A stretch of DNA of 64,000 nt, from assembly GCA_964229335.1 (NCBI GenBank), contig CAXRCZ010000004.1, forward strand, positions 128,001 to 192,000. The letters are read 5' to 3'. Below the pieces are notes generated by a model that was not told the origin of the DNA, searched no databases, and saw nothing but the letters and a program-made list of their open reading frames with translations. The stretch is from Minisyncoccia bacterium (GTDB taxonomy: Bacteria > Patescibacteriota > Minisyncoccia > Phycocordibacterales > UBA918). Shown here in pieces: positions 4,294 to 27,837 of the stretch (the first letter of the stretch is position 1; every line of letters starts with the position of its first letter). A program made the position numbers and the translations under genes.

Positions 4294-4328
4294 CAAAAAG
4301 CGGACTCGTGAGAAGTCCGCTTTTTGTT
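4292..4328. terminator. Bidirectional terminator
   Basis: AACAAAAAGCGGACT...AGTCCGCTTTTTGTT between convergent DUF305 genes. Confidence 0.85.
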
Positions 4329-4342
4329 TTGGCAAAGTTTGT

Positions 4343-4927: not shown

Positions 4928-4931
4928 AACG

Positions 4932-5420: not shown

Positions 5421-5459
5421 AAATTCTAGGTATAACTAATAAAAATACTAGTAGTCTAA

Positions 5460-5852
5460 CTAGAATAGTTTTGGATGAAGAATGCCGTTTGAAAACAGTT
5501 CCTGAAGAGGTCTGTAAGAGAATGAATAGGTTCTTTCCTTTAGCCACCTCGTAAGTACACATATTCTCCTTAGGCGCCGAGACGGTAAAAGATTCGGTAT
5601 GATTGTTGCAACATAAGCAGCCGCGAGAATGGAAGATAGTAAAAATGTGACTGTCTGGATAACCGCCAAAAATGTAGATTTCCAGGCACCAATATGGTCG
5701 CTAAGATTCATTGCACACACGACCTCTCCATGTTCCATAAAAGGACAATCGGACATGGATCCAGTCATATCCATACCGGCAGACATATTCAATAGACTCA
5801 GAGTCATTGCTCCGAGAAGAAACATCATCATTAAACCAGCTCCTACTTTCAT
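5460..5852 (-). CDS. Putative metal-sensing leader peptide 1 (GILHPK family)
   Basis: Start reassigned to the ATG 7 nt after TGCTATAAT; TM, Met/Cys/His loop, TM, then LQELFSNGILHPKLF; three paralogs in the window. Confidence 0.75.
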   Translation of the reverse strand: MKVGAGLMMMFLLGAMTLSLLNMSAGMDMTGSMSDCPFMEHGEVVCAMNLSDHIGAWKSTFLAVIQTVTFLLSSILAAAYVATIIPNLLPSRRLRRICVLTRWLKERTYSFSYRPLQELFSNGILHPKLF

Positions 5853-5860
5853 TGGGATGA

Positions 5861-6607
5861 TTATAGCATTGTGAATAACATCCACACCGCCATACCAACC
5901 ATCATAAGGTTTTCGGTAAGTGAGATAAAGCCAAGTGGAACGTTGGTGTCACCTCCAACACAGGCACATTTAAGTTCGCGCTTTTCTATATAAACGGCTT
6001 TAAACACTGACACTGCCCCAACGCCGCCGATAAAAAGTGCTACGGGGATAGAGATAACTGGCAGTACACCAGCAAACATCAGTAACCCTGCTGTGACTTC
6101 TGCGTAAGGATAGATATATCCATACGGTACCCACTTCCGAGCCAAAACATCATAGTTAAGAAACATCGTGGAAAAACCTTCAACATCGCGAAGTTTCATC
6201 AGTGCTAAAAGCACCATGGTGATAGAGATGAAGTGTGGAATGATCATTAGGTATCCATAGGCAAAACTAGTCATCACTCCAACAGCAACTGCCAACAATA
6301 ACCCGACCGCAAATATGGCGATGACTGGCTTGTACGTAGTGTCACCTGCTTTTAAGACATGCTTGCCAAAATACTCTCTAAGCTCTGTATGTCCACCGAT
6401 ACGCTTCCCGCCAATAAACGTTTGCGGTGTAGTCTCTACCTGATGTTCTTTTTTAAAAATATCAGTCTCCTCCCGAGTTTTGAGATGATGGTCTTCAACT
6501 TTATACCCATGAGATTCTAGAAGGTGTTTCGATTTCATTCCATAAGGACAGACATGCTTAGGCATAACCATTCGATACAAAACAGCTTTTTTTATTTCTT
6601 TACTCAT
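5861..6607 (-). CDS. Glutaredoxin-MauE/DoxX fusion membrane protein
   Basis: CPYG, TTPQTFIGG..IGG; membrane domain ending LKCACVG...EN. Confidence 0.85.
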   Translation of the reverse strand: MSKEIKKAVLYRMVMPKHVCPYGMKSKHLLESHGYKVEDHHLKTREETDIFKKEHQVETTPQTFIGGKRIGGHTELREYFGKHVLKAGDTTYKPVIAIFAVGLLLAVAVGVMTSFAYGYLMIIPHFISITMVLLALMKLRDVEGFSTMFLNYDVLARKWVPYGYIYPYAEVTAGLLMFAGVLPVISIPVALFIGGVGAVSVFKAVYIEKRELKCACVGGDTNVPLGFISLTENLMMVGMAVWMLFTML

Positions 6608-6801
6608 ACTTTTAGTGTACCAAACGTGTCAAGCTGTCACACTTCTGAGCATACACTCATTTTATTTACGCATTTTAGCCATATATTTATGCGTTGTAAA
6701 AAAATAATTTCAGTGTATCCTTAGCCATAAGCAAGCAACGGAAATCTAATGTAGGGGTTTCTGTATATGACAAAACTTATCAATTAGTTTTTTCGTTGCT
6801 T

Positions 6802-8103
6802 ATGCAGAAACTCATATGGACTACAGTCCAACGTCGTATAAACGACCTTATTCCCCAAGAGGTTAATCCTCGTAAAATCACTGACAAACAAATGTCAGAT
6901 CTTAAGCGTAGTCTTAAGAAATATAATTTAGTAGAAATCCCTGCGGTCGATGAAGACGGAAAGATATTGGCAGGACATCAACGTATTAAGGCGATGCAAC
7001 TACTTGGTCGTGGTGACGAGCTGGTAGATGTTCGTGTACCTAATCGTAAACTTACTAAAGAAGAGTCAGAAGAATATCTCATTGCATCAAACAAGCTTGG
7101 TGGAGACTGGGACTTTGACTCTCTTAAAACATTCGATTTCGACACACTTAGCTTTGCCGGTTTTGATGACACCGAATTATCAAACCTGTTCGACACCGAG
7201 GTTGAAGTAAAGGAAGAAAAGTTTGATGTAGAAGAAGAACTAAAGAAGATAAAAACACCTAAGACTAGGCTGGGCGATCTTATTACGCTTGGCAACCATC
7301 GAATCTTATGTGGAGACTCAACTAAGCCAGAAAACCTTAAACGTCTACTTGGTACCGAGAAAGCTTCGATGATATACAGTGATCCCGTCTACAACATCAA
7401 CGTAGATTACGATGGCGGTATTGGTGGAAGGAAGGATTATGGCGGTAATGTAAATGATAAGCGTAGCTTTGAAGAATATAAAAAATTCCTTAGTGACAGT
7501 CTCAAAGCCGCACTAGCGGTATCTGCTAAAAATACCCATGTTTTCTACTGGTGCGACCAAGTCTATATCGGTGTAGTTCAAGACATTTACCGTGAGAACA
7601 AAATACATAACAAGAGAGTCTGCTTATGGTTAAAGAACAACCAAAACCCTGTGCCAACGGTAGCTTTTAACAAGGTCTATGAACCAGTTGTGTACGGAAC
7701 TCGAGGAAAGCCATTCCTATCTACTCAGCATACCAATCTCACTGAAGTGTTGAACAAAGAATTGAGTACAGGTAATGAATTGCTTGAAGAAGTAGACGTC
7801 TTTGTAGATGTTTGGACAGCTAAGCGATTATCTGCAAAGGACTATGAGCACGCAACCTCAAAACCACCTACGCTACACGAGAAAGCTATTAGGCGTTGTA
7901 CGAAGATAAACGACATCATTCTCGATAGTTTTTTAGGTTCAGGTAGCACCCTAATTGCTGGCGAGCAGCTAAGGAGACGAGTCTTTGGCTGTGAACTTGA
8001 ACCACAGTTTTGTGATCTCATCATTCGACGCTATGAGAAGCTGACGGGAGTAAAAGCTAAGGTTGAACATGAAAAAGAACCAAGTACAACCAAAGTTCAT
8101 TAA
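6802..8103 (+). CDS. ParB-N domain plus N6/N4 DNA methyltransferase (phage/ICE type)
   Basis: NPR, ILAGHQR; HRILCGDS, SDPVY, HATSKP, LDSFLGSGST, ELEP. Confidence 0.9.
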   Translation: MQKLIWTTVQRRINDLIPQEVNPRKITDKQMSDLKRSLKKYNLVEIPAVDEDGKILAGHQRIKAMQLLGRGDELVDVRVPNRKLTKEESEEYLIASNKLGGDWDFDSLKTFDFDTLSFAGFDDTELSNLFDTEVEVKEEKFDVEEELKKIKTPKTRLGDLITLGNHRILCGDSTKPENLKRLLGTEKASMIYSDPVYNINVDYDGGIGGRKDYGGNVNDKRSFEEYKKFLSDSLKAALAVSAKNTHVFYWCDQVYIGVVQDIYRENKIHNKRVCLWLKNNQNPVPTVAFNKVYEPVVYGTRGKPFLSTQHTNLTEVLNKELSTGNELLEEVDVFVDVWTAKRLSAKDYEHATSKPPTLHEKAIRRCTKINDIILDSFLGSGSTLIAGEQLRRRVFGCELEPQFCDLIIRRYEKLTGVKAKVEHEKEPSTTKVH

Positions 8104-8542
8104 GGAACTAGCAAAGACTCCTATAGTATCTGTAGCTTGTGAGAAAGTGGGTATTTCTAGACAAACTGCATATCGCTGGATGAAAGAAGATGAAAAGTTC
8201 CTAGAGAAGGTTAAGGAAGCAATGAAAGAAGGTGTTAGTTTGGTTAATGATGTAGCTGAAAGTAACATCTTAAAAGGTATCAAGCAGGGAGATAAAGGAG
8301 ATACTAAGTATTGGCTCAGTCACCGACATGAGTCATTTAGAAAACCACATCGCCATCGTGACGCCCAGTTAGATTTCCTCACTTTTAAACTACTGGAACA
8401 ATATAGCTCCACTGATGCAACGTTTGATCCTTATTCAGAAGCTAAGAAGCAAGCTGCCAAAGCACGAGTTCGAGAAATGCTTGATAAGTGGAAGCCGTTT
8501 TTCCCCGACGAACCGACTAAGTGTAAAAAGCAGAAGAAATAG
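8069..8542 (+). CDS. HTH protein, terminase-small-subunit-like
   Basis: ACEKVGISRQTAYRWMKEDEKF; overlaps the end of the MTase as in phage packaging modules. Confidence 0.65.
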   Translation: MKKNQVQPKFIKELAKTPIVSVACEKVGISRQTAYRWMKEDEKFLEKVKEAMKEGVSLVNDVAESNILKGIKQGDKGDTKYWLSHRHESFRKPHRHRDAQLDFLTFKLLEQYSSTDATFDPYSEAKKQAAKARVREMLDKWKPFFPDEPTKCKKQKK

Positions 8543-9004
8543 TTATTCTGCTTTTACTAGCCAATCACAGGCTATCCAGCCAACTTGTCCTCCAGCATTT
8601 ATCTTGCAGTAATCATTTGCCTCATCGTAAGAAATGACTTCAACAACTGTATGTTCCTTTACTGCACCTATTTTCTTTCGGTCAGTATACGACTGCCAGA
8701 TATTAACTTCTTTTGGTGAGATGTATGCAAATTCTGTTGATTCAACTTTGTACGTTCCTAGTTCGAAGCTGCTTTCTCGTACAGGAGGTACGTATGTTCC
8801 GACGTCATAATTAGTATTGGGTGTACTGCTAGCATCGTTTATTGATGACATTACTACTGATGACATGACCCCAATAAACAATATGATGACTATCAATCCT
8901 CCTAGTCCAATACCTTGTTTGGCTCGACAATGAGGACATCGTCGTGCCTTCTTAGGAATGTCCATCTGACACTCTTTGCATTTCTTTGTTTGTTCGTTTG
9001 ACAT
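8543..9004 (-). CDS. Zn-ribbon/TM/SH3-like hypothetical protein
   Basis: CKEC..CPHC, TM, C-terminal YCKI...GQVGWI; start reassigned to ATG 9004. Confidence 0.65.
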   Translation of the reverse strand: MSNEQTKKCKECQMDIPKKARRCPHCRAKQGIGLGGLIVIILFIGVMSSVVMSSINDASSTPNTNYDVGTYVPPVRESSFELGTYKVESTEFAYISPKEVNIWQSYTDRKKIGAVKEHTVVEVISYDEANDYCKINAGGQVGWIACDWLVKAE

Positions 9005-9172
9005 TAAATTGTGGCTTACGTTTTTAAAAAGGAGCGGATACACAAAGCCCGCTACCAGGAGAGCCGAAGCTCCTACAAGAGTTTCCCCTTGCAACGTAAG
9101 CCACGCCCTGATAACGGGTTCTCTGTGGCTTACGTTTTCGTACCATACCGCCAGAAATCTGTCGGGTTAGGT
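9005..9172 (-). ncRNA. Candidate structured RNA leader
   Basis: 12-bp perfect stem, GAAA- and UUCG-capped hairpins, and a 15-nt direct repeat allowing alternative pairing. Confidence 0.5.
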
Positions 9173-9429
9173 CACTTGTTGTGTAATGAACATAATAACA
9201 GAAATCTGCTATTACTGGGATTGTATCGCTGAAATTAGTGTTTGCTAAGCAAGATGCCTACAGCGTCACAATCGTAACATCTGACGCATATACCTGACCT
9301 TTCTTGAGGTTAGGGTCAGGTTTCAGATTCTGCTCATCTAATTTCTGCAAAAGTTCTATTAATTCGACTAAGTTACTTGCCATATGTGAGAGCTTAGCAG
9401 GACTAGTATTCTCTGGCATTAATATAAAT

Positions 9430-10725
9430 ATGGAAGGAGACATATCTTTGTCAGAGGCACGAGTGAAATATTGTTTATACGCTCGTAAATCTACTGAGTC
9501 AGATGAACAACAGGCATTGTCTATCGATTCTCAGATCAAGGAGATGCAAGCTATTGCTGAGAAGTTGAACCTTAATATTGTTGATGTAAAGCGAGAGTCG
9601 TACTCAGCTAAAGCGTCTGGCAAGCGACCTGTATTTCAAGAGCTACTCAATGAAATAGATTCAGGAAAATATAACGGAATACTCACATGGGCACCTGATA
9701 GATTGAGTCGTAATGCTGGTGACCTAGGTTCAGTCGTTGACTTAATGGATGCGAAGAAGTTAGTTCATATACAAACCTATGGGCAAACTTTCAGTAACTC
9801 ACCAAACGAGAAGTTTCTCCTAATGATTTTATGTTCTCAAGCAAAACTAGAGAACGATAACAAAAGTCAGAATGTACGACGAGGACTCCGAGCTAGGGTT
9901 GAAATGGGATTATGGCCGTGCCGACCACCGACTGGCTATACTAAATTCAAACGTATGGATCAGAAGTGTGAATCTGTAATTGATCCAGAACGAGCGCCAA
10001 TCATTAAGCAGATATTTGAGAAGATTGGTTATGATGGCTGGAGTGGTCGCAAACTCCATATCTGGCTTCGGGATGAATTAGATTTCAAAACTGAGAATGG
10101 TAAGCATCTCAGCCTAGGTAATCTTTATCGTATTCTTGAAAACCATTTCTACTACGGACGGTTTGAATATCCAAAGAATTCAGGGAAATGGTATGACGGC
10201 GCACATGAACCAATCATTACCAAAGAGTTATTCATCATTGTTCAAGAGCAGATTAAGAGTCAAATACTTGAACCACGTTCACAACAAAAAGAATTTGCGT
10301 TTACCAAAGTAATGACGTGCGGACTCTGTGGATCAGGAATCACTGCTGACGAGAAATTCAAGAAACAAAAGAATGGCAACGTCCACCGCTATGTCTATTA
10401 CAAATGCACTCGCACTAAAGATCCTAATTGTGACTGTGGCTTCATCAATGAAAACGACCTCATATCACAACTACAAAACCTGATTGATGATATTGACATC
10501 AAAGTAGTGCCGATGAGAGACAAGATTACTTCTGAGGTTAAAAGATATAAACAATTTCAGCACATGTTACTGGGAAAAGAAGAAAAGATTGCTGTTAGTA
10601 ATATTGATATTAGGAATTATGCGAAGTTCATTTTACAAGAGGGCGATATAGAAGAAAAAAGAGAGTTTCTACGGTGCTTAAAAAGTGCAGTTGTGCTGAA
10701 TAAAAAAGAAGTCTCACTCGTCTAG
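9430..10725 (+). CDS. Large serine recombinase (resolvase, recombinase and Zn-ribbon domains)
   Basis: YARKST, DRLSRN, PPTGY, HEPII, CGLCG...YYKC. Confidence 0.95.
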   Translation: MEGDISLSEARVKYCLYARKSTESDEQQALSIDSQIKEMQAIAEKLNLNIVDVKRESYSAKASGKRPVFQELLNEIDSGKYNGILTWAPDRLSRNAGDLGSVVDLMDAKKLVHIQTYGQTFSNSPNEKFLLMILCSQAKLENDNKSQNVRRGLRARVEMGLWPCRPPTGYTKFKRMDQKCESVIDPERAPIIKQIFEKIGYDGWSGRKLHIWLRDELDFKTENGKHLSLGNLYRILENHFYYGRFEYPKNSGKWYDGAHEPIITKELFIIVQEQIKSQILEPRSQQKEFAFTKVMTCGLCGSGITADEKFKKQKNGNVHRYVYYKCTRTKDPNCDCGFINENDLISQLQNLIDDIDIKVVPMRDKITSEVKRYKQFQHMLLGKEEKIAVSNIDIRNYAKFILQEGDIEEKREFLRCLKSAVVLNKKEVSLV

Positions 10726-10845
10726 TCCATAGGCCATCATTTGCTTTTTTTGGACTAAAGTGTTTCACTATTTGAGTATACGTTGCTCCAATACTTTTTG
10801 CCTCACACATTTTCTCCGAGGTACTTACAATTTAACTAAATATAT

Positions 10846-11664
10846 ATGATCGAATGGTTTTTAGCCTTGGGTCCTGTGACTCAAGCGCTCTTAGCAGGTT
10901 GTTTTACCTGGCTCGTTACTGCACTCGGTGCATCAGGAGTAATCTTCTTTAAAGAAATAAACAAAAAAGTTTTAAACGGAATGCTAGCCTTTGCGGCTGG
11001 TGTGATGATTGCAGCCAGTTTTTGGTCGTTACTCTCTCCGGCAATTGAATTATCAGAAGGCGGTCCACTGCCAAAATGGTCGCCACCTTTGATAGGGTTC
11101 TTACTCGGTGCTGGAACGTTATGGATAATGGACAAAATCATCCCTCACTTGCATCTCGGTGCACCTATGTCAGAAGTTGAGGGAGTAAAGACCTCTTGGC
11201 ACCGTAGTGTCCTTCTGATTTCATCAATAACACTTCATAACATACCTGAAGGATTGGCTATTGGTGTTGCTTTTGGAGCGGCTGCGGCAGGTATTGAAGG
11301 AGCAACAGTTGCAGCAGCGATTGCTCTAGCTGTTGGTATTGGTATACAGAATTTCCCAGAAGGTGCAGCAGTTTCTGTCCCATTGAGACGAGAAGGATTT
11401 ACTCGTAAAAAAGCGTTTTGGTATGGTCAATTTTCAGGAATGGTTGAGCCAATCTCAGCGGTGTTAGGAGCTGCTTTAGTAATAACGTTCTCACCCGTTT
11501 TACCGTATGCACTAGCCTTTGCGGCTGGAGCTATGATGTTTGTAGTCGTTGAAGAATTGATTCCTGAAGCCCAGCGTGGCGGTCCGGGCATGGCAGATTT
11601 TGCCACAGTGGGAGCAATGATTGGTTTTGCTGTAATGATGTCATTAGACGTAGGATTAGGTTAA
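10846..11664 (+). CDS. ZIP family (GufA/ZupT-like) metal transporter
   Basis: LHNIPEG and QNFPEG motifs. Confidence 0.92.
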
Positions 11665-11670
11665 AAATAT

Positions 11671-12579
11671 ATGTCTCACAACCATCATCACGGTCATGGA
11701 CATCACCACCATCACCATGTACCCAGAGGGGGTAACATTTTGTTTGCTGCTATCCTAAATCTATCTTTCACCATCATCGAAATCATTGGTGGTATTTTGA
11801 CCAACAGTGTCGCAATTCTCTCAGACGCTCTGCATGACTTGGGAGACAGTATCGCTTTGTTCACTGCATACATTGCTGAAAAGCAGTCTGAACGTTCACC
11901 TGACAAAAAGCGTACCTTTGGCTACGCTCGTATTTCTGTATTCTCAGCACTCTTTAGTGCCGTGATTCTGATTGTTGGTTCAATCTTTATTTTGACGGAG
12001 GCTATTCAGAGATTATTCAGTCCGGAACCAGTTCACGCTACTGGAATGATTCTATTAGCAATCTTTGGAGTAGGGGTAAACCTTGTGGCGTTCTTTAGAT
12101 TAAGCAAAGGAATGAGTGCCAATGAAAAAGTGCTGTCATGGCACTTACTTGAAGACGTGATTGGCTGGGCAGCTGTACTGGTTGGAGCCATCATCATCTA
12201 CTTCACAGATTTCTATCTCATTGACCCAATCCTAACCGTTGGCTACACCCTGTTCATTCTTTGGGGTGTTTATGGGGGTCTCAAAAATGTCATCAATATC
12301 TTCATGCAGGGGACACCGGCCTCGGTTGATATAGAAAAAATCAAAGAGGCGATTCTAGAAGTTTATGAAGTTCAATCAGTTCACGATATTCACGTGTGGT
12401 CGCTAGATGGTGAGCACAATGTTTTGACCTGTCACGTAGTACTTGATAATGGCACTATAGCTGAAACGAAGAGGATCAAGGAGAGTATAGAAGATAAAAT
12501 GAAATCATTCCACGTCAACCACACAACAATTGAGTGTGAGATTGAAGGAGAGTGTGTTGGAAAAGACTGTAGTCACTAG
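11671..12579 (+). CDS. czcD: CDF family Zn/Co/Cd efflux transporter
   Basis: His-rich N-terminus, SDALHDLGD, TFGYAR, HLLED, HDIHVW, HTTIE. Confidence 0.9.
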   Translation: MSHNHHHGHGHHHHHHVPRGGNILFAAILNLSFTIIEIIGGILTNSVAILSDALHDLGDSIALFTAYIAEKQSERSPDKKRTFGYARISVFSALFSAVILIVGSIFILTEAIQRLFSPEPVHATGMILLAIFGVGVNLVAFFRLSKGMSANEKVLSWHLLEDVIGWAAVLVGAIIIYFTDFYLIDPILTVGYTLFILWGVYGGLKNVINIFMQGTPASVDIEKIKEAILEVYEVQSVHDIHVWSLDGEHNVLTCHVVLDNGTIAETKRIKESIEDKMKSFHVNHTTIECEIEGECVGKDCSH

Positions 12580-12642
12580 TTTGTTGGAATGTAGACATAT
12601 CGTTTAATCTTATGTATTTATCTGATAAAATGGTCAGGATAT

Positions 12643-13047
12643 ATGCGGAAATTACTTAATGCTAATTCGATACGTAGAATACTGATTTTCTTAGGGATTG
12701 GTTTTTTCTTGTTGGCAGTGACACTGTGTGCACATTTTGCAAATCCAACCGATTACGCCACCGACACTAGTGTTGCTACGTGTGATTTGTCAGAAGTAAT
12801 ATCATCAATTTCTGTCTCAAAAGAAAGCATGGGACTACTGTTCCTGTTGATGCTTTTAGCATTAGCGTCCCTTGCTTTACCTACTATTTCTTCATATCCA
12901 AAAACAGAGGTGTGTTTGCAGTCGCTCTACTCACAGACCTATTCAATTACGAATGAATCTTGGTACAAAGTTTTAGACCCTTTTTTACTTGCGCTCCGTA
13001 AAGGAATCATACATCCCAAGCTATACAACACAGCGATAATTAGCTAA
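12643..13047 (+). CDS. Putative metal-sensing leader peptide 2 (GIIHPK)
   Basis: TM, CAH..C loop, TM, then FLLALRKGIIHPKLY; TGATAAAAT upstream. Confidence 0.65.
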   Translation: MRKLLNANSIRRILIFLGIGFFLLAVTLCAHFANPTDYATDTSVATCDLSEVISSISVSKESMGLLFLLMLLALASLALPTISSYPKTEVCLQSLYSQTYSITNESWYKVLDPFLLALRKGIIHPKLYNTAIIS

Positions 13048-13098
13048 CGTTCACGACTGCTGATAAGTCAGCTTTTCGTGATACACGTTGGCTTTTTT
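13042..13098 (+). terminator. Terminator/attenuator hairpin overlapping the stop codon of leader 2
   Basis: Nested stems AGCTAACGT/ACGTTGGCT, TCACGA/TCGTGA, GCTGA/TCAGC, then a T tract. Confidence 0.7.
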
Positions 13099-13148
13099 GC
13101 TATTCATTTATTTACTCTAGAACGTTTAACACAAAACCTATTAATTTT

Positions 13149-13907
13149 ATGGAAGAAACTATTACACAGAAACCTACTAACCCGTACCTGATACCCTTGG
13201 CTATCGTTGTTGCTGGCGGGTTGATTGCAGGGGCGTTGTACTTCGGCACAAATGGAAACACAGTAGCTCCAGTAGCGGTAAACAATAATGCTGAACAAAC
13301 AGCCCAAGCAGCACCACCGCCAACTGGCTCAACTGATGACGTTAGACCAGTTACTTCTGAAGACCACATTAAAGGCAATCCTGACGCACCAATTAAAATT
13401 GTTGAATATTCTGACTTTGAGTGTCCATTCTGCAAGCGGTTCCACGACACTATGAATGAAGTTATGGATAAGTACGGCGAGAGTGGCGAAGTCGCTTGGG
13501 TGTTTAGACAATTTCCATTAGAGCAGTTACATCCAGTAAAAGCTCAGCGAGCAGCAGTTGCATCAGAGTGTGCAGCAGAGTTGGGAGGAAACAATGCGTT
13601 CTGGACCTTTACTGACGGATACTTCGCAGACCCTTCAACTGGAAACAATCGAACGAACCAAGACGTGTTAATTCCTGAATTAGCAGCTGCAGCTGGTCTG
13701 GACAGTAATCAGTTTAATGAATGTCTTGAAAGTGGTAAATACGATAATCATATAGACGCAGATATCGCCAATGCGGTCGAAACCGGCGGGCGTGGTACAC
13801 CATGGAGTGTCATGATTGGCCCTGATGGTGCAACCTATCCAATTAATGGCGCGCAACCTCTAGCGGCCGTTGAGCAACTTATTTCAATTGCGAAAGACGG
13901 TCAGTAA
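13149..13907 (+). CDS. DsbA/BdbD family thiol-disulfide oxidoreductase
   Basis: EYSDFECPFC, GTP, GAQP; N-terminal TM. Confidence 0.92.
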   Translation: MEETITQKPTNPYLIPLAIVVAGGLIAGALYFGTNGNTVAPVAVNNNAEQTAQAAPPPTGSTDDVRPVTSEDHIKGNPDAPIKIVEYSDFECPFCKRFHDTMNEVMDKYGESGEVAWVFRQFPLEQLHPVKAQRAAVASECAAELGGNNAFWTFTDGYFADPSTGNNRTNQDVLIPELAAAAGLDSNQFNECLESGKYDNHIDADIANAVETGGRGTPWSVMIGPDGATYPINGAQPLAAVEQLISIAKDGQ

Positions 13908-13912
13908 CTATC

Positions 13913-14461
13913 ATGTACCTCAAGACGTTTAAGCAAGTTCTGGCAAAATCCGTCTATGCGGGACTGTTTCTAGCGGTGAGTTTTTTTGTGCTGTCGATTG
14001 CCATCTTGTTGCCACACATCGGACTGTTAAAAACCTTATGGCAGTACGAATCAGTGTCGTTACTCGAAATCGGGTTGATGACTGTGAATCTCTACGGTTC
14101 ACTAGGAACAAATTTTTCGTTTCTGTCAGCAACATACACGATACTCATTGCCGTATTATTTGGTCTACAAGTAACTCTTCTCACCTATTACGTCAGGAGT
14201 ATACGGAGCAAAATAACCAATCTCACCAGCGTAGGTGCTAGTAGTATCGGCGGCCTCGTTAGTGGATTTTTCGGCATTGGTTGTGCCGCTTGTGGAACTT
14301 TCTTACTGTCTTCAATTCTTGTTTTGTTTGGTGCAGGTGGCTTACTCGCTTGGCTACCCTTTGGTGGAGAAGAGTTCGGTTTGCTTGGTGTGGGGCTGCT
14401 CTTGTATGCCAATCACATCGTCGTAAAGAAAATAAATGCACCACTAGTGTGTGCATCGTAA
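13913..14461 (+). CDS. Membrane protein with CxxC (GCAACG)
   Basis: Several TMs, GIGCAACG, C-terminal Cys. Confidence 0.7.
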   Translation: MYLKTFKQVLAKSVYAGLFLAVSFFVLSIAILLPHIGLLKTLWQYESVSLLEIGLMTVNLYGSLGTNFSFLSATYTILIAVLFGLQVTLLTYYVRSIRSKITNLTSVGASSIGGLVSGFFGIGCAACGTFLLSSILVLFGAGGLLAWLPFGGEEFGLLGVGLLLYANHIVVKKINAPLVCAS

Positions 14462-14488
14462 TCAAAATTTATTCTTAAGTAATTAAAC

Positions 14489-15022
14489 ATGAAACCATTA
14501 ATAATTATTGTTGGTCTATCAGTACTCCTTCTCGTAGGTGGTTCGTGGTGGTCAAACAACGCACAACAGAAAGTATACGAACAAGAAATTGTCGGTATTA
14601 CATCTACTATTGTGACAGATCGTAGCCATGTACAGACTGAAGTAGACTACAAAGACACTCCTCCGGTTGGTGGGAATCATCATCCTGTCTGGTTGAGCTG
14701 TAATGGCGACATCTACGATGAGCCAGTGGTAGATGAAAATGCGGTTCATTCACTTGAGCATGGTGCCGTCTGGATTACCTATCAGCCAGAACTTGCTGCC
14801 GAACAAATTGAAATTCTCAAAGGTAAAGTGAAAGGATACTCTTTCATGAGTCCGTACCCAGAACAAGAGTCACCAATTATGCTCACAGCGTGGGGTGTAC
14901 AACTTCCACTTGATGCAGCTGATGATCCTCGGATAGATCAGTTTCTAGCAAAATTCCGCCAAGGACCACAAACGCCTGAGCCGGGTGCAACCTGTAATGC
15001 CATTCCGGGAGGAATGCAGTAA
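14489..15022 (+). CDS. DUF3105 family protein
   Basis: PPVGGNH, VHSLEHGAVWITY, LTAWG, PEPGA. Confidence 0.88.
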   Translation: MKPLIIIVGLSVLLLVGGSWWSNNAQQKVYEQEIVGITSTIVTDRSHVQTEVDYKDTPPVGGNHHPVWLSCNGDIYDEPVVDENAVHSLEHGAVWITYQPELAAEQIEILKGKVKGYSFMSPYPEQESPIMLTAWGVQLPLDAADDPRIDQFLAKFRQGPQTPEPGATCNAIPGGMQ

Positions 15023-15030
15023 ACTGAACT

Positions 15031-15654
15031 ATGAATTATCAAGCTATTAAAAGACAGTTGCCAGCCCTCCTTATCGGGATTGTTGTTGGTGTTGGAATGT
15101 TCTTGCTCGGTCAGAATTCTATTCCACTCGATAAACCAAATGAGGCAGAGATTGGTTTTGCACAGGACATGAGTGTTCACCATCAACAAGCAATCGAAAT
15201 GTCATTTCTTGTTCGAGAAAAAACCGATGATCAAGAGATTCGCGGTTTTGCCTTTGACATCATTAACACCCAAGCCAACCAGCGTGGCATGATGCTTGGT
15301 TGGCTGGATTTGTGGCAACAGCCACTCTCAACCACTAAAACGCCAATGATGTGGATGATGGATGATATGTCTTTTATGGATCACAGTCAGATGACAAAAG
15401 ACTTTACCTCTGGAGCATACATGCCCGGCATGGCAACCAGTGACGAAATGCAGACACTTGTTGAAGCGAGCGGAACAGACGCTGAGCAGTTATTTCTCGA
15501 GCTGATGATTCGCCATCATAAAGGCGGTGTCATGATGGCAGACGGGGTTATAAAGCGCAGTGAGAATGAAACAGTCACTCGCTTGGCGCAAACCATGGTC
15601 AACGGTCAACAGGCAGAGATTGATTACATGAATGAGTTATTAACAAACTACTAA
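15031..15654 (+). CDS. DUF305 family protein
   Basis: FAQDMSVHHQQA, MPGMA, FLELMIRHHKGG. Confidence 0.9.
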   Translation: MNYQAIKRQLPALLIGIVVGVGMFLLGQNSIPLDKPNEAEIGFAQDMSVHHQQAIEMSFLVREKTDDQEIRGFAFDIINTQANQRGMMLGWLDLWQQPLSTTKTPMMWMMDDMSFMDHSQMTKDFTSGAYMPGMATSDEMQTLVEASGTDAEQLFLELMIRHHKGGVMMADGVIKRSENETVTRLAQTMVNGQQAEIDYMNELLTNY

Positions 15655-15663
15655 AGAAATAAT

Positions 15664-16323
15664 ATGGAAGAAACACAAATAAGCGAAGATCCTGTTAAAC
15701 ATAACGAGATAGAAACTCCTGCTACAGCAGTAAAGATTCAACAAAAACCACTGCTAATGTACGGTGCAGTTGTTTTAGTTGTCGTCTTGATACTAGGTGC
15801 ACTTTTATACTCGCAAGGAATTATTGTGGCAGCCAAAGTAAATGGCGAGTCCATTAGTCGTCTTAGCGTTCTTAGTGAATTAGAAGATCAAGCTGGAGCA
15901 GCGGTACTTGATTCTCTTATCTCAGATATCCTGATTGAACAAGCTGCGACTGAAGCGGGTGTTACTGTAACTGATGCTGATGTGGTAACAGAGATAGCGG
16001 CCATCGAATCACAAATTTCTGGACAGGGTGGAACTCTCGAGGATGTGTTGGCGCAACAGGGATTAACCCGAGAAAGTCTCACGAAGCAAATCAGAACACA
16101 AAAGATGTTAGAGACGTTATTTGCCTCAGACATTACGGTCACTGAGGAAGAAGTTAACGCGTTTATTGAAGCCAATGGACCCTTACCAGAAGGGCAAGAA
16201 GAAGCACTGCGTCCGCAGATAGAAGAACAAATCAAAAGTCAGAAATTTAGCACTGCTGCACAAAGCTACATTACCGGTTTACGCACACAGGCAAACATTC
16301 AGTACTTCGTAGACTATGAATAG
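15664..16323 (+). CDS. SurA-N/PrsA-like extracytoplasmic chaperone
   Basis: TM, AAKVNGESI, ITVTEEEV; no parvulin domain. Confidence 0.75.
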   Translation: MEETQISEDPVKHNEIETPATAVKIQQKPLLMYGAVVLVVVLILGALLYSQGIIVAAKVNGESISRLSVLSELEDQAGAAVLDSLISDILIEQAATEAGVTVTDADVVTEIAAIESQISGQGGTLEDVLAQQGLTRESLTKQIRTQKMLETLFASDITVTEEEVNAFIEANGPLPEGQEEALRPQIEEQIKSQKFSTAAQSYITGLRTQANIQYFVDYE

Positions 16324-17578: not shown

Positions 17579-17592
17579 TCTAATTTATTAGT

Positions 17593-19548
17593 ATGACTGA
17601 AAAACATAACAACAATGCAGCTGTCTGTGATGACTGTGGAGCTGGGGACGAGACTACTCCTGTTACCGGCCTACGATCACTCTTCTCTCGCAGTGGTGCA
17701 CTTAAAATGCTTACGCCTATTTCGGGAATGTTGCTTGTTTTAGCTTTTTTGAGTTCTTATTCATTACCACAACCAGGTTTTGCAACCTTGTTCTACTTAC
17801 TATCGCTCTTGACTGGTTCGGTGTTTGTGGTACAAAGCGCGATTACTGGACTGGTAAAACAGCGGTTCTTAAACATCAGTTTTTTGGTGGTTATTGCGTC
17901 GATTGGTGCTATCTATATCGGTGAGTACGCTGAGGCAGCTGCGGTAGTATTCTTCTTTGCCTTAGCGGAACTCTTTGAAAGTTACGGCGTTGAACGCTCA
18001 CGGCGAGCAGTAGCAGCATTGATTAAAAAATCACCCAAAGTAGCTCGAATGTTAGATGGTACTACTATGCCGGTTGAGGAAGTGGTTGTTGGAACCATTG
18101 TTGTTGTAAAGCCTGGAGAGCAGATTCCGTTAGATGGTGTGGTTACCAAAGGAGAGTCGACCATTGATGAGGCGTCCATTACAGGCGAATCTATTCCGGT
18201 TGATAAAACTACTGATGATCAAGTGTTTGCCAGCACTATGAATGTGCAAGGGTATCTTGAGATTAGGGTTGAGAAAGCTAGCCAAGACTCAACGTTTGCT
18301 CGGATTATTACTCTCATTGAAGAAGCACAAGCATCGCGGGCACCTACTCAGGCGTTCATCGACAAGTTTGCCCGCTACTACACGCCAGCCGTTGTTATAC
18401 TGTCTATTTTGATTGCCGTAATACCAACCTTAGTCTTTGGTCTACCGTTTGAAGACTGGCTCTATCGAGCGCTCATTCTCTTAGTTATTGCCTGTCCATG
18501 TGCATTGGTGATTGCTACACCAGTGGCGATTGCTTCAGCGATTGGCGGAGCGTCACGTAGTGGCATTCTCATAAAAGGTGGGAAATATCTTGAAAAATTA
18601 GCTAGCGTTAAAGCGATTGCATTTGATAAGACTCGTACTCTCACCTATGGCACCCATACTGTTACTGATGTCATAGCTTTTGGTTCGCATAGTAAAGAGA
18701 AGGTTATTGCTGATGCGGCTGGTATTGAATTATTTTCTTCACATCCACTTGCTGAAGCAATTATTGCCTATGCAAAAGAACAGAATATCGAGCCACATAA
18801 AATGGACTCCTATGAGAATGTGGCTGGCAAGGGTGGACGAGCACAGTGTTTGGTGTGTGAAGCCGATAGTTATATCGGTAACAGAAAACTACTGACCGAA
18901 AGCGGTATCGACAGCACCACATTTGAAGCAGATGTAGAACGCTTAGAAAAAGAAGGTAAAACGGTGGTGTTGGTAGCTGAAGGTAAGGAAGTAATTGGAG
19001 CGCTCGCGATTTCCGATCAAGTTCGTGAAGAAGCATCAGAAGTAATTGATGTACTCAGAAGAAGGGGTGTTGAGAGCGCAATGCTTACTGGTGACAACGA
19101 GCATAGTGCAGCCTACGTTGCTAATCTGATTGGTATAAATGACGTTAAAGCCTCATTACTGCCTGAAGAAAAAGTAACCAGCGTGAAAGAACTAAGAGAC
19201 AAGTATCACTCAGTGGCGATGGTTGGTGATGGAGTAAATGACGCTCCATCACTCGTTACATCAGACGTGGGGTTTGCTATTGGTGCTGGTGGTACCGATG
19301 CTGCTATAGAATCAGCTGACATAACTCTGTTATCTGGAGACTTACGGACTATCCCACAGTCAATCAAACTAGCTCGCGCTACGGTTAAAACTATTCGAAC
19401 AAACATTATTCTCGCACTTGGTATAAAAATCCTCTTCCTCATTCTCGTGCCGTTTGGTTTAACTAACCTGGTGTTCGCCATTGCCGCTGATTCAGGTATG
19501 GCTATTGTCGTAATTCTTAACAGCTTGAGGCTCTTTGCGGTGAAATAA
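17593..19548 (+). CDS. Heavy-metal P1B-type ATPase (ZntA/CadA-like)
   Basis: TGES, CPC, DKTRT (variant), HPLA, GDGVNDAP; N-terminal CDDC. Confidence 0.92.
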   Translation: MTEKHNNNAAVCDDCGAGDETTPVTGLRSLFSRSGALKMLTPISGMLLVLAFLSSYSLPQPGFATLFYLLSLLTGSVFVVQSAITGLVKQRFLNISFLVVIASIGAIYIGEYAEAAAVVFFFALAELFESYGVERSRRAVAALIKKSPKVARMLDGTTMPVEEVVVGTIVVVKPGEQIPLDGVVTKGESTIDEASITGESIPVDKTTDDQVFASTMNVQGYLEIRVEKASQDSTFARIITLIEEAQASRAPTQAFIDKFARYYTPAVVILSILIAVIPTLVFGLPFEDWLYRALILLVIACPCALVIATPVAIASAIGGASRSGILIKGGKYLEKLASVKAIAFDKTRTLTYGTHTVTDVIAFGSHSKEKVIADAAGIELFSSHPLAEAIIAYAKEQNIEPHKMDSYENVAGKGGRAQCLVCEADSYIGNRKLLTESGIDSTTFEADVERLEKEGKTVVLVAEGKEVIGALAISDQVREEASEVIDVLRRRGVESAMLTGDNEHSAAYVANLIGINDVKASLLPEEKVTSVKELRDKYHSVAMVGDGVNDAPSLVTSDVGFAIGAGGTDAAIESADITLLSGDLRTIPQSIKLARATVKTIRTNIILALGIKILFLILVPFGLTNLVFAIAADSGMAIVVILNSLRLFAVK

Positions 19549-19550
19549 AC

Positions 19551-20012
19551 ATGGATGAAATAATAATTTTCCTAGCTAGTAAGTTACATGTAGTGATTGT
19601 TGTTATTGCAATCATTACATTCCTGCTCTCCACTAAGAAGCAAAGAATGATACTTGCTCTAACTGCAACAGCAGCACTACCACTGTCGTACCTACTGGGA
19701 AAGCTAGCGAGTTTCTTCAACTACACCGAACGCCCTTTTTCTGAACTTGGCATTACTCCGCTCGTGCCCCATATCGCTGACAATGGATTTCCTTCAGAAC
19801 ACACTCTCTATGCCATGGTGATTGCAATGGTGGTCTTCTTGGTACACAGACGCTGGGGTACTATGCTCATAATTTTAGCTTTGCTGGTGGGTGTTGGACG
19901 TGTTTGGGCTGATGTACATAATCCAATTGATATAGTGGGTTCTGTGTTGGTAGCCACCGTTAGTGTACTAGCTTCATTTTTTGTACTCCAGCAATGTAAA
20001 AAATCAAAATGA
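19551..20012 (+). CDS. PAP2 family phosphatase (BcrC-like undecaprenyl-PP phosphatase)
   Basis: RPF, FPSEH, GRVWADVHNPID. Confidence 0.85.
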   Translation: MDEIIIFLASKLHVVIVVIAIITFLLSTKKQRMILALTATAALPLSYLLGKLASFFNYTERPFSELGITPLVPHIADNGFPSEHTLYAMVIAMVVFLVHRRWGTMLIILALLVGVGRVWADVHNPIDIVGSVLVATVSVLASFFVLQQCKKSK

Positions 20013-20103
20013 TTTTGAAATAATGCAGTGATTTAGCGTGATATACATTTACATTTTGTATTCATTGCTTGACACATTTGGTATCATTAATAGTGTAAAA
20101 GGC

Positions 20104-20490
20104 ATGACAAGTTGGTTGAACAGAAACATTTCGCATAAGCTCACCGCACTTCTGATCGTGGGAGTGTTTGTGGTAGTTACTTTTTCTTGTTTTACGATTG
20201 CAGATGATCACGGTGGACACAGCTTTGACGCCGCAGTTGTTTGCGAGACAGTTCTTTCACTAGCTGATACCACTATAATTCAAATAGGCGTCATGCTCTT
20301 GTTAGTGGCAGCCGCTGCACACCTCTGCTTCAGGACTTTCAACCCATTTTCACTGCAAAATCCACTCTACAGACTACTTGTTTTTCATGGTCCACCACCA
20401 GACTACCTTTTTTCACCAAAAAGATATTCCTATTTGCAAAAACTCTTTAGTTCTGGGCTCATTCATTCAAAACTTCATAGCGTAGCGTAA
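20104..20490 (+). CDS. Putative metal-sensing leader peptide 3 (HGPP and GLIHSK)
   Basis: TM, C..DDHGGH..C loop, TM, then HGPP...YLQKLFSSGLIHSKL; start reassigned to ATG 20104. Confidence 0.65.
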   Translation: MTSWLNRNISHKLTALLIVGVFVVVTFSCFTIADDHGGHSFDAAVVCETVLSLADTTIIQIGVMLLLVAAAAHLCFRTFNPFSLQNPLYRLLVFHGPPPDYLFSPKRYSYLQKLFSSGLIHSKLHSVA

Positions 20491-20491
20491 T

Positions 20492-20536
20492 AACCAACGA
20501 CGTAAAGCTCGTTGCAGTCTTTACCGTTGGTTTTTT
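20492..20536 (+). terminator. Terminator/attenuator hairpin immediately after leader 3
   Basis: AACCAACG/CGTTGGTT and GTAAAG/CTTTAC stems, then a T tract. Confidence 0.7.
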
Positions 20537-20590
20537 GTATTTATAAATAAGAAGTTAGTGATACATAATCAATACCAAGTAAACGAAATT

Positions 20591-21364
20591 ATGAATTGGA
20601 AAATGATAACCGGAACGTTCCTCGCACTATTTACGTTAGTGCTTGTGGGTTCGTATTTGATTTTGACTCAAGACACATCATTAAATAAAGACGTTGTGGT
20701 TTTCGACACAACGATAATACTCCAGCCACAAGCTGACAACAATATTGTTACTGTCGATACAGTGACTCTATCAGTTCCGGGTTTTCTGGCTGTTAGGGAG
20801 ATTGATGGTGAACGACTGGGACAGATTATTGAGATTAGTGAGTATCTTAATGGGGGAACACATAACGATATGTCTATTCCGTTAGGTGAATTCTATACAG
20901 GTGACGAGGAACTGATAGTGATGATTTATGAAGACGCTGCTAATGACAAGATATTCAATGACCTTGATCAACCGTACGAGGAAAATGGAATTCCTGTTGC
21001 AGTCTATGTAGCGACTGGCGAAAAAGTCCCTGAATCAATTGTGACTAATACTGTTGCTCCTGAAGGAATTTCACTCATGAATATGGGAAGTATGGAGTTT
21101 GTCAGTTATACCGACGAGGGCTTTAAACCGAAAGACTTGACGATATCTCGCGGCACCATGGTGCACTTTGTTAACGAAAGTTCAATCGATATGTGGGTTG
21201 CTTCAGACGATCATCCAGCTCACACAGATTTGCCGACATTTGACCAATTCAAGGGTAGTCCGCCGGGAGAACAGTATGTGTATATCTTCGATCAGGCTGG
21301 CGAGTGGAAATATCACGACCATCTTACTCCAACCGCAGTAGGCACAATTACCGTAACCAATTAA
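20591..21364 (+). CDS. Membrane-anchored cupredoxin-domain protein
   Basis: C-terminal F.P..LTI..G..V.F.N, HPAH, GEWKYHDH...GTITV. Confidence 0.75.
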   Translation: MNWKMITGTFLALFTLVLVGSYLILTQDTSLNKDVVVFDTTIILQPQADNNIVTVDTVTLSVPGFLAVREIDGERLGQIIEISEYLNGGTHNDMSIPLGEFYTGDEELIVMIYEDAANDKIFNDLDQPYEENGIPVAVYVATGEKVPESIVTNTVAPEGISLMNMGSMEFVSYTDEGFKPKDLTISRGTMVHFVNESSIDMWVASDDHPAHTDLPTFDQFKGSPPGEQYVYIFDQAGEWKYHDHLTPTAVGTITVTN

Positions 21365-21377
21365 CTTCTAACTAATC

Positions 21378-21665: not shown

Positions 21666-21668
21666 CGT

Positions 21669-23678: not shown

Positions 23679-23679
23679 T

Positions 23680-25188: not shown

Positions 25189-25196
25189 AAATTATT

Positions 25197-26513: not shown

Positions 26514-26515
26514 CC

Positions 26516-27379
26516 ATGCTGTTACCAAAGATTGAAGCATTGGGAACACACTGGCACATAGAGCTGTTTGAAGACTGCGCCGATGCAACAGTGCTTCGAG
26601 ACTCAGTTGCTGACTGGCTAGAGGAGTATGAGTCACGGTACAGTCGTTTCAGGCCTAATTCGTGGTTGTCAAAATTAAATCAAAACGGTGAGTTTCGGGA
26701 CCCCGACCTACAGTTTGCAAAGCTTCTTAATCTATCACTCGACTACTACCAAAAGACCGACGGAGTCTTTAATATAGCGGTGGGAGAAAAGTTGGTACAC
26801 GCTGGCTACGATACCAACTATTCTTTTACTGCTGATGAGCAAGAGGCCGTCGTGCCTAAATTGCCAGACATCCTTTCTGTGACTGACGATAGAATAATTC
26901 TCTCGGCAGGACAACTTGATTTGGGTGGTATTGGTAAAGGGTTTGCGATTGATGCTTTAGCAGACCACTTAAAAACCGAACATAACCTCTCATATTTTCT
27001 AATTAATGGCGGTGGTGACATGTTCGCTACGTCTGATAATGGAAAACCGGTCACTATTGCGCTTGGACATCCGTACGACAAGTCGCTTGGTATAGGCAAT
27101 CTCGAGCTTCAGGATGCTGGTTTTGCAGCCTCGTCACCTCACGTGCGAAGTTGGGTAGATGCTAAAACTGGGGCAGCTAAAAACCACCTTCTGACCGATG
27201 AGCATGTTGCCACCTATGTAACAGCCCGAACTGCTACTGAAGCGGATGTGTGGGCTACTACACTGTGTCTAAATCTGTCTATAAACAAGCCTGATGATGT
27301 GGGTGCACTGGTGATAGATCAGATGAATATCTGTCACCAAGATGAGGTATTTCAGCTCTATTCTGGGCATAAAATATAG
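26516..27379 (+). CDS. apbE: FAD:protein FMN transferase
   Basis: ALGT, SRFRPNS, DLGGIGKG, INGGGD, ADVWAT. Confidence 0.9.
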   Translation: MLLPKIEALGTHWHIELFEDCADATVLRDSVADWLEEYESRYSRFRPNSWLSKLNQNGEFRDPDLQFAKLLNLSLDYYQKTDGVFNIAVGEKLVHAGYDTNYSFTADEQEAVVPKLPDILSVTDDRIILSAGQLDLGGIGKGFAIDALADHLKTEHNLSYFLINGGGDMFATSDNGKPVTIALGHPYDKSLGIGNLELQDAGFAASSPHVRSWVDAKTGAAKNHLLTDEHVATYVTARTATEADVWATTLCLNLSINKPDDVGALVIDQMNICHQDEVFQLYSGHKI

Positions 27380-27385
27380 TGTATT

Positions 27386-27790
27386 ATGGAATTAACAATG
27401 AAAAAAATAGCTAGTATAGGTGTTTTTACGATTTTCATAAGTGTGCTATTTGCCAGCCTATTTGCTATGCCTGTTGGTATGGACATGGAAGGTGGAATGG
27501 GTGACTGTCCGTTTATGGAGGTCGGTCAGGTGATCTGCCCGATGGATTTTGCGGGCCATATTGAAGCCTGGAAAGCAGCATTTGCATCTGTTGTACCAAC
27601 TATTTTCACCCTCATATTGATTGCTGGGGCAGCTCTTGCATCCACTCTGCCCATACGGTTTCTTTTCACAAACAAAAGAAAACCCATACCAATTAGGTCA
27701 AATATACTGCGTACTCGTACCTACTCTTACGTATATCGTCCACTCCAGGAATTATTTTCAAACGGTATCCTACACCCCAAGGTTTTTTAA
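27386..27790 (+). CDS. Putative metal-sensing leader peptide 4 (GILHPK)
   Basis: TM, MDMEGGMGDCPFM..CPMDFAGH loop, TM, then LQELFSNGILHPKVF; close paralog of 5460-5852. Confidence 0.75.
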   Translation: MELTMKKIASIGVFTIFISVLFASLFAMPVGMDMEGGMGDCPFMEVGQVICPMDFAGHIEAWKAAFASVVPTIFTLILIAGAALASTLPIRFLFTNKRKPIPIRSNILRTRTYSYVYRPLQELFSNGILHPKVF

Positions 27791-27837
27791 CTGCCAACAA
27801 GCAGGCTCGCCCTGCACTTATCAGTTAAGAAAAATCT

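Follow-up and report, generated by a model that had tools for sequence, protein, structure and literature searches.

What role do four paralogous small open reading frames (ORFs), each directly upstream of a different run of metal and envelope genes, play in a patescibacterial genome? They lie in a 64,000-nucleotide (nt) stretch of a Minisyncoccia bacterium genome (contig CAXRCZ010000004.1, positions 128,001 to 192,000), which we call the window and whose own numbering is used throughout. A sequence-only reading had proposed them as metal-sensing ribosome arrest leader peptides, and all four translate as it claimed. Each encodes two predicted transmembrane (TM) helices enclosing a loop that carries Cys, followed by a spacer and a C-terminal tail resembling GILHPK. 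Taking together all accounts in which these ORFs act in cis as leaders, such a role is very probable, and the family they define most likely works in the manner of the copper leaders CutF and CruR from outside the DUF2946 family.

Leader ORF1 (5460..5852, minus strand, 130 amino acids [aa]) has TM1 at residues 3 to 21, a loop with CPFM...C and His and Met residues, TM2 at residues 67 to 85, and the tail LQELFSNGILHPKLF. In leader ORF2 (12643..13047, plus strand, 134 aa), TM1 spans residues 13 to 31, the loop contributes C29, H31, and C47, TM2 spans residues 62 to 80, and the tail FLLALRKGIIHPKLY is followed by six residues. Leader ORF3 (20104..20490, plus strand, 128 aa) has TM1 at 13 to 31, C29, DDHGGH, and C47, TM2 at 58 to 76, the sequence HGPPP in its spacer, and the tail LQKLFSSGLIHSKLH followed by three residues. 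Leader ORF4 (27386..27790, plus strand, 134 aa, or 130 aa from the Met codon at 27398) has TM1 at 8 to 26, C41-PFM...C51 and H58, TM2 at 70 to 88, and the tail LQELFSNGILHPKVF. The motif Pro or Ser stands 42, 45, 46, and 43 residues past TM2 in ORF1 to ORF4, in keeping with the 41 to 46 residues read from the sequence beforehand. Six-frame and profile searches gave exactly five matches in the genome (13 contigs totalling 740,809 bases; estimated completeness, 98%; contamination, 7.5%), the fifth being a paralogue on another contig (C9:8827-9216) ahead of a DUF305 gene.

Across the family the tail has the consensus LxxLFSxGIL[HN]PK and sits a few residues before the stop codon: the motif ends 2 to 10 residues from the stop in all 81 distinct instances (loci L001 to L135 and the window) and exactly 2 residues from it in 162 of 202 proteins. 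The spacer is near random (approximately 3.5 bits per column), in contrast to the conserved last 15 residues. The motif Gly is encoded by GGT, GGC, GGA, and GGG 27, 25, 20, and 9 times, respectively, all six Leu codons are used, and the Ser codons include AGY. Among 62 clusters at less than 45% identity, synonymous differences account for 60% of the motif codon pairs that encode the same residue, and the share of codon pairs encoding different amino acids is 42% in the motif and 91% in the spacer. Since synonymous codons vary freely, the constraint on the tail acts on the protein, which rules out an RNA or DNA element posing as a protein; an Rfam scan of the window returned only LOOT and tRNA. 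An artefact or chance motif is ruled out by the shuffled-pattern scan (a degenerate DNA pattern for the tail matched three times in the window and not once in 100 shuffles), by the profile matches in the genome, and by the size of the family.

The regular expression for the tail missed 6 of 208 stored proteins, three of them near variants and three tail-less. A loose GI[IL]HPK scan of DNA, covering about half of the collection, gave 117 loci, which are mostly chance or internal matches. The string GI[ILF]HPKIY also lies within long Bacillota proteins (L195, L198, L211, L215, L235, L236, L262, L269, and L299) that we take to be BlaR1/M56-like; one scores 21.9 bits against the profile, and the likeness is probably a coincidence. 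Among the matches listed, full-text searches with motif strings, and with Patescibacteria combined with arrest, upstream ORF (uORF), or copper, found no published description of the motif, most subscription journals lying outside their scope. The statement of the sequence-only reading that it knew of no description thus holds for the searched literature, and supplementary candidate tables, outside the search, could hold some of the ORFs.

The family is large, with 2,022 clusters at 50% identity (E ≤ 0.001; 1,361 at E ≤ 1e−10) among 1.84 billion recovered by a 37-sequence profile; the best 150 of the 2,022 were inspected. No Pfam or NCBIfam model matches any of the four ORFs, and 37 diverse members gave no match to known leader families. 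The median length is 136 aa by the earliest start. Among 215 members at less than 70% identity, 209 have exactly two Cys in the loop, which is acidic with basic flanks and contains a median of 6 Met (range, 0 to 9) and 2 His; two Cys and one His are its only invariant residues. The cysteines are approximately 9 to 10 residues apart (Cys-x9-Cys), or 17 apart in ORF2 and ORF3, and CPFM amounts to a CxxM. The basic loop flanks suggest that both termini are cytoplasmic (N-in/C-in). The distance from the end of TM2 to the motif Pro is tight, as the sequence-only reading required of an arrest leader (median, 40; interquartile range, 39 to 42; range, 28 to 52; n = 215; median of 50 from the TM2 center), in a member set drawn with the full-length profile, which favors tight spacing, and with a TM2 search window of 25 to 75. 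TM1 is predicted by a hydrophobicity scale and by a helix at residues 2 to 26 of an AlphaFold2 model of ORF4. That low-confidence model (predicted local distance difference test [pLDDT], 64; predicted template modeling score [pTM], 0.29) shows a pair of long helices, a loop without structure, and a short helix in the tail; Foldseek found no fold match in the PDB, and there was no PDB sequence match below an E value of 0.16. The two-TM body carries a conserved H..AW..F helix.

A second tail is found on the same body. A tail-free body profile matches 104 of 401 genomes of the class, and among the best 90 of 107 listed body matches (four of them seeds or the window's own) regular expressions assigned 20 to the GILHPK type, 49 to a WLxLxENSP/KRDP type (W type), 20 to neither, and 1 as truncated. 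Sorted by eye, the 20 others comprise 12 W/ENSP variants, one GILNHK, and 7 tail-less proteins. The bodies of the two types are homologous (hhalign, 97.7%), and the tails stand in the same register, the second Cys lying a median of 82 versus 84 residues from the Pro. W-type leaders mostly precede DUF1573, DsbD-like, and DsbA genes (34 of 83 downstream genes scanned in one set) and have a sharp hairpin from approximately 15 nt past the Pro codon, a position that in these leaders is inseparable from that of the stop. WLxLHENSP, with its variant WLxxxEKRDP, is commoner than GILHPK in the class (loci L145, L176 to L182, and L315 to L404); a single-protein scan for this tail found only 4 loci.

Across the phylum, the full-length profile matches 17 of 401 sampled genomes, and a strict DNA pattern finds 76 loci in GTDB genomes. 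The labelled hosts of these loci are Patescibacteria lineages, save two Bacteroidota and two "Ca. Elulimicrobium," and named relatives belong to Paceibacteria/Parcubacteria and other Patescibacteria. The two Bacteroidota hosts have genomes of 4.1 to 4.2 Mb with one RecA each; one locus is flanked by genes with type IX secretion system tails, a VirD4-like gene, and a serine recombinase, and the other by an RprY-like regulator. Four members labelled Gammaproteobacteria occur in genomes of 0.8 to 1.3 Mb and for that reason are not counted as transfer. A 6.6-Mb non-Patescibacteria genome (G404:C4:36000-72000; L311 and L312) has a metal island with three GIL-type leaders and one W-type leader, one of which precedes a CusBA-like efflux unit; two tyrosine integrases and a TraD-like gene adjoin it. 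ORF4 and a Bacteroidota member had no match on plasmids, and one IMG/VR viral contig (L405) carries a 50% identical member.

The genes directly downstream are of one general character. In the window we recovered the same metal and envelope gene content after all four ORFs as the sequence-only reading had described. ORF1 is followed by a gene for a CopG-like DUF411 protein (4932..5420, minus strand) and then DUF305 (4343-4927); ORF2 by a DsbA-like thioredoxin gene (13149..13907, plus strand) and a run of DUF3105, DUF305, SurA-like, M23, and P1B ATPase genes; ORF3 by a gene encoding DUF7282 and a cupredoxin-like domain (20558..21364, plus strand), with rhodanese, P1B ATPase, flavin reductase, and ApbE genes after it; and ORF4 by a second CopG-like DUF411 gene (27838..28497, plus strand) and a multicopper oxidase gene (28519-30321). 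A co-oriented gene follows 80 of the 81 motif instances, mostly 35 to 100 nt away. At 76 loci the first downstream gene encodes DUF305 (28 loci), DsbA (14), DUF411 (12), rhodanese, with DUF1573 (9), an HMA P1B-ATPase (4), multicopper oxidase (2), DUF6803 (1), a YncE-like protein (1), or a product without a match (5). At 36 more divergent loci it encodes DsbD_2, mostly HMA fused (12), DsbA (5), DUF411 (3), an HMA protein or ATPase (2), cupredoxin (1), DUF1513 (1), or a product without a match (12, of which 4 are truncated). We take DUF305 to be CopM-like. DUF411 is equated with CopG in PMC13707694. Both sets of counts bear out the expectation that homologues lie just upstream of metal or redox genes.

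The further claim that the ORFs head metal operons stood only in part: metal and redox genes do lie directly downstream, but each of the four has a co-oriented gene before it, 6 to 91 nt away, and so does not come first in its run. Across the family, 61 of 76 scorable leaders have such a neighbor before them, often a close one. The order of genes is thus not enough to place the leaders at the heads of operons, and they would head transcription units only if the −10-like boxes before them are real promoters, for which the case is clear at ORF1, plausible at ORF4, and weak at ORF2 and ORF3. The extended −10-like box TGcTATAAT (5860..5868, minus strand) lies 7 nt 5′ of the ORF1 start, overlaps the stop codon of an upstream glutaredoxin/MauE gene, and predicts a leaderless start; the hexamer TATAGT (27375..27380, plus strand) lies 5 nt 5′ of ORF4 and overlaps the ApbE stop codon. 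Of 78 leaders, 54 have such a hexamer 4 to 9 nt 5′ of a candidate start, as do 77 of 126 in a larger leader set; among genome ORFs (several starts scored) the figure is 162 of 611, and with one start scored each it is 56 of 168 for control junction genes and 4 of 77 for the genes downstream of leaders. This placement points to leader transcripts that begin at or near the start codon, that is, leaderless ones. In the source genome roughly one ORF in four has a −10 box immediately 5′ of its start codon, which suggests that leaderless mRNAs are common there. A generic sigma-70 and terminator scan of positions 4000 to 21000 gave nothing above shuffles.

As the sequence-only reading had it, a predicted RNA hairpin stands at or beside each stop codon (z = −2.2, −6.3, −2.0, and −2.4 against 200 shuffles), and the hairpins are of two kinds. 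Those of ORF1 and ORF4 are of a start-masking type. The first (5423..5466, minus strand; −11.5 kcal/mol; z = −2.15) takes in the final codon and stop of ORF1 and ends 3 nt short of the DUF411 start codon, and in the second (27783..27832, plus strand; −17 kcal/mol; z = −2.42) an outer stem joins the last codons and stop to a point 6 nt before the DUF411 start, around an inner GC stem. Those of ORF2 and ORF3 are terminator-like with a U-run: the ORF2 hairpin (13042..13098, plus strand; z = −6.25; U6 run) begins at the last codon and stop and has its GC base 31 nt past the His codon, and the ORF3 hairpin (20492..20536, plus strand; z = −2.03) follows the stop and has its GC base 30 nt past the His codon.

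In short-tail members of the family the stop region is predicted to pair with the last 25 nt 5′ of the next start at a mean probability of 0.46 (n = 70), versus 0.16 in 168 control junctions. A junction's own arms pair more stably than swapped arms (−6.3 versus −4.3 kcal/mol; 0 of 10,000 permutations), an advantage that holds in 26 non-redundant members and is not significant in control junctions (p = 0.19). With a simulated ribosome footprint in place, opening the start region costs 3.9 kcal/mol less, versus 1.2 kcal/mol less in controls. A Shine-Dalgarno-like word stands before 1 of 77 downstream starts, against 9 of 168 control starts, and start regions at leader junctions are A-rich. Where a terminator-like stem is present, it starts 22 to 31 nt past the Pro codon in 21 of 30 cases, independently of tail length (3 or 9 residues; rho = 0.01). 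Measured from the stop, its position instead depends on tail length (rho = −0.52); the spread is 2 nt from the motif versus 7.5 nt from the stop, with the long-tail cases numbering 12 only and partly related. This registration is the best sign in the sequences that the RNA is matched to a ribosome whose place is set by the motif and not by the stop.

Like CutF of Rhodobacter capsulatus (PMC9973294; bioRxiv 10.1101/2025.02.05.636593), the family consists of small exported Cys leaders before copper detoxification genes, with a short intergenic gap and a stem-loop that in CutF hides the next initiation site; Cu-induced stalling is proposed to give induction in CutF. Unlike the family, CutF has a cleavable signal peptide, a CxxxC motif, a PPP stall relieved by elongation factor P (EF-P), use of the signal recognition particle (SRP), and a hidden Shine-Dalgarno sequence, whereas the family has two TM helices, Cys-x9-Cys (longer in ORF2 and ORF3), no PP in the tail, and A-rich start regions. 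Of the traits by which CutF-like uORFs are recognized, the family has a length below approximately 150 aa, an N-terminal TM segment, and a place directly before copper or metal genes with a short gap and a stem-loop, but it lacks CxxC or CxxxC and a RAPP-like or PP sequence in the last 15 residues, where the tail is GIL[HN]PK or ENSP. The published survey of CutF-like ORFs (PMC9973294; bioRxiv 10.1101/2025.02.05.636593) required PP in the last 15 residues, so the family would have been excluded from it; in its available text it lists Pseudomonadota and Bacteroidota and makes no mention of Patescibacteria.

CruR (Bp2923) of Bordetella pertussis, a DUF2946/PF11162 protein (PMC9426467), resembles the family in having metal-liganding Cys at a conserved distance from a near-terminal motif and in controlling transcription between leader and next gene, as is proposed here; its arrest is demonstrated in PMC12992588. 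It differs in its CxxC, in RAPP placed 45 residues later, in Rho-dependent termination, and in its polarity, Cu relieving arrest and shutting uptake, whereas in the family Cys and Pro are approximately 80 residues apart with a TM helix between them, the terminators are intrinsic-like, and the targets are detoxification and chaperone genes. Membership in DUF2946 was rejected, since PF11162 matched none of the four ORFs at E ≤ 10 and none of 37 members at E ≤ 1; over its cut-off it was found in 0 of 401 phylum genomes. In language-model features DUF2946 is the nearest named cluster, at only 0.84 (104 of 256 features), which is a lead. An ORF of the HYC_CC_PP family (NCBIfam NF047658) at L157:1606-2046 shares a Bacteroidota copper island with a GILNPK leader, but none of 37 aligned members matches NF047658 at E ≤ 0.1.

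With MifM, ApcA, uC_KYxIW, and the NSP/NAP-stop substrates (PMC10987492), the family shares a membrane segment, a spacer of tunnel length, and a conserved tail other than RAPP close to the stop, and with some of these monitoring substrates an N-in/C-in double TM; the ENSP tail loosely recalls the Asn-x-Pro near the stop of NSP/NAP-stop substrates. Unlike the family, MifM-type substrates precede yidC or sec genes and have no metal loop reported in the available text. The motifs described by Fujiwara et al. are RAPP-like, LPPP, KYxIW, NSP/NAP-stop, and DGMK-stop, none with HPK in the available text (PMC10987492 and PMC12992588), and HPK is absent from the main text of PMC10987492. One published stall word of the RAPP-like kind, HGPP, does occur in the spacer of ORF3 (window 20380-20400), approximately 24 residues before its GLIHSK tail. 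The ORF3 HGPPP lies approximately 30 residues from the end and the ORF3 subfamily keeps x[SG]PP with PP invariant; HGPP may be a second pause site in ORF3.

On the analogy with CutF, we judge it fairly probable that copper on the loop makes the tail stall the ribosome and so turns on the next gene. Transcription would start at the −10 box just 5′ of the leader, often giving a leaderless mRNA, and TM1 and TM2 would insert cotranslationally through SecY/YidC in the N-in/C-in orientation, leaving the Cys-x9-Cys/His/Met loop outside. With approximately 40 residues from TM2 to Pro, TM2 would be at the translocon while LxxLFSxGIL[HN]PK[LIV][FY] fills the exit tunnel. If no ligand is bound, the chain would be pulled by insertion or by folding of the loop and the ribosome would leave, upon which the hairpin would mask the A-rich start region (ORF1 and ORF4) or terminate transcription (ORF2 and ORF3). 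With Cu on the loop the pull would be lost, as proposed for CutF, and a ribosome stalled with its P-site near the aromatic residue at the second position after Lys would dwell over the 5′ arm and allow the downstream gene to be expressed. We infer promoters, topology, stalling, stall site, ligand, and polarity; anatomy, constraint, context, and RNA placement are observed. YidC is present in the source genome and EF-P has a weak match there; Rho, CsoR, and MerR have none, CsoR and MerR being the regulator families searched.

Much of this architecture would also suit a cis-acting arrest leader whose signal is extracytoplasmic disulfide formation or YidC/Sec insertion capacity, with copper acting indirectly via thiol redox. 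We consider that account unlikely, if a serious one. It draws on the restriction of the invariant loop residues to two Cys and one His while Met varies from none upward, on the frequency of DsbA, DsbD-like, and AhpC/redoxin genes as first targets, on the presence of YidC, and on a double TM and short spacer like those of MifM, ApcA, and uC_KYxIW (PMC10987492; median of 54 in MifM versus 50 from the TM2 center to Pro here), and the CutF model itself invokes disulfides (bioRxiv 10.1101/2025.02.05.636593). Against it, no member stands upstream of sec or yidC among the first downstream genes scanned, DUF305, DUF411, HMA ATPase, multicopper oxidase, cupredoxin, and the Cus-like efflux unit are copper genes, and a Met/His-rich loop suits Cu(I). 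Stable small membrane proteins acting in trans as metal chaperones or accessory subunits, with the tail as a binding or degradation motif and ordinary hairpins, are improbable. Such proteins would explain full-length two-TM products with the H..AW..F helix, tail-less body homologues, the similar GI[IL]HPK[IV]Y string inside long unrelated proteins, and a tail that in the AlphaFold2 model can form a short amphipathic helix (H119-125), but that model is of low confidence and matches no fold. Nor is a common binding partner evident when the same tail precedes soluble DUF305, DsbA, an ATPase, and an oxidase. Further points against such proteins are that two unlike tails occur in the same register, that the spacer varies freely in sequence but keeps its length, that the hairpins take their distance from the motif, and that five paralogues each stand ahead of a different unit. 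Least credible, and very improbable, is plain translational coupling, in which any terminating ribosome opens the hairpin with no specific stall and no sensing. The stem does include the stop codon in short-tail members, and Escherichia coli ribosomes parked at a stop repress nearby terminators (PMC4824070), yet coupling leaves unexplained a 15-residue tail conserved as protein, a fixed spacer, two Cys, and terminators that keep their distance from the motif as the stop moves.

Several observations weigh against the copper-responsive arrest leader itself. Motif conservation in loci found by pattern is partly circular, and kin are not independent. Pro is replaced by Ser, Thr, or Ala in 18 of 143 representatives (approximately 13%), and the tail contains no RAPP or PPP; approximately 7 of 90 body homologues have no recognizable tail, and in L322 the motif is far from the stop. 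Apparent frameshifts 5′ of an intact tail leave ORFs of 83, 56, and 12 residues at L007, L046, and L049, by decay or assembly error. Among the first downstream genes, many serve thiol-disulfide chemistry and not metal handling, and SRP54 and FtsY have no match over the cut-off in the source genome, whereas CutF uses SRP. As for the RNA, junction folding reaches z < −2 in 40 of 78 cases, the DUF305-linked [HN]PKAP group being often unstructured, terminator-like stems occur in only 30 of 130 members, and 1 of 16 W-type leaders has its stem in the 22- to 31-nt window, so that the motif-registered terminator test failed for that type. Covarying hairpins, which the sequence-only reading had named as a check, fared unevenly: own arms beat swapped arms, but a spacer-derived control arm did so weakly as well in the 26 non-redundant members (p = 0.029), column-wise covariation at 13 DUF411-type junctions was not significant (67.9% of cells paired, a level reached in 53 of 500 shuffles), and no consensus structure emerged from RNAalifold at leader junctions, possibly because the hairpins do not align. 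The polarity at ORF2 and ORF3 is uncertain because stems at 22 to 31 nt sit at the edge of a stalled footprint. Readthrough upon stalling is plausible because E. coli ribosomes at a stop repress terminators up to approximately 27 nt away (PMC4824070). Overall, the genomic predictions of the leader reading were mostly met for context, TM2-to-motif distance, tail constraint, and own-arm pairing, but column-wise covariation was not significant, the Pro is not invariant, and many targets are thiol-disulfide genes.

Between the metal gene runs (window 6796-10725) lie genes for an N6/N4 methyltransferase, a helix-turn-helix (HTH) protein, and a large serine recombinase; a LOOT RNA occupies 9060-9173 on the minus strand, and the metal cluster, which is possibly an integrative island, ends at a tRNA-Glu gene (30752-30826). 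No att-like direct repeat of the tRNA-Glu region was found in positions 1 to 36000. Two 94-nt intergenic repeats (1529-1622 and 2889-2982; 72% alike), both with TTCTCG...CTTCTCG ends, lie upstream of minus-strand genes. In the one run of RNA reads, only 194 nt of the oxidase gene were covered, which is uninformative on the leaders.

Nascent-chain metal sensing has been shown for two leaders only, both with proline-rich stalls and both from Proteobacteria. Our best reading is that the regulatory logic here is already known from CutF and CruR and that the stall motifs are undescribed. In its widest form, to which we give somewhat less than an even chance, the proposal is that Patescibacteria run their copper and envelope-redox genes by a transmembrane leader superfamily of their own, with a two-Cys body and interchangeable arrest tails (LFSxGIL[HN]PK and WLxLHENSP) that have no proline pair, working without SRP, Rho, or Shine-Dalgarno pairing, replacing missing metal-sensing transcription factors, and carried on islands into Bacteroidota and other hosts. 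If true, two stall motifs of different chemistry and a membrane-hairpin sensor design would be added to the known repertoire, and Patescibacteria, whose gene regulation is almost unstudied, would gain a testable regulatory mechanism.

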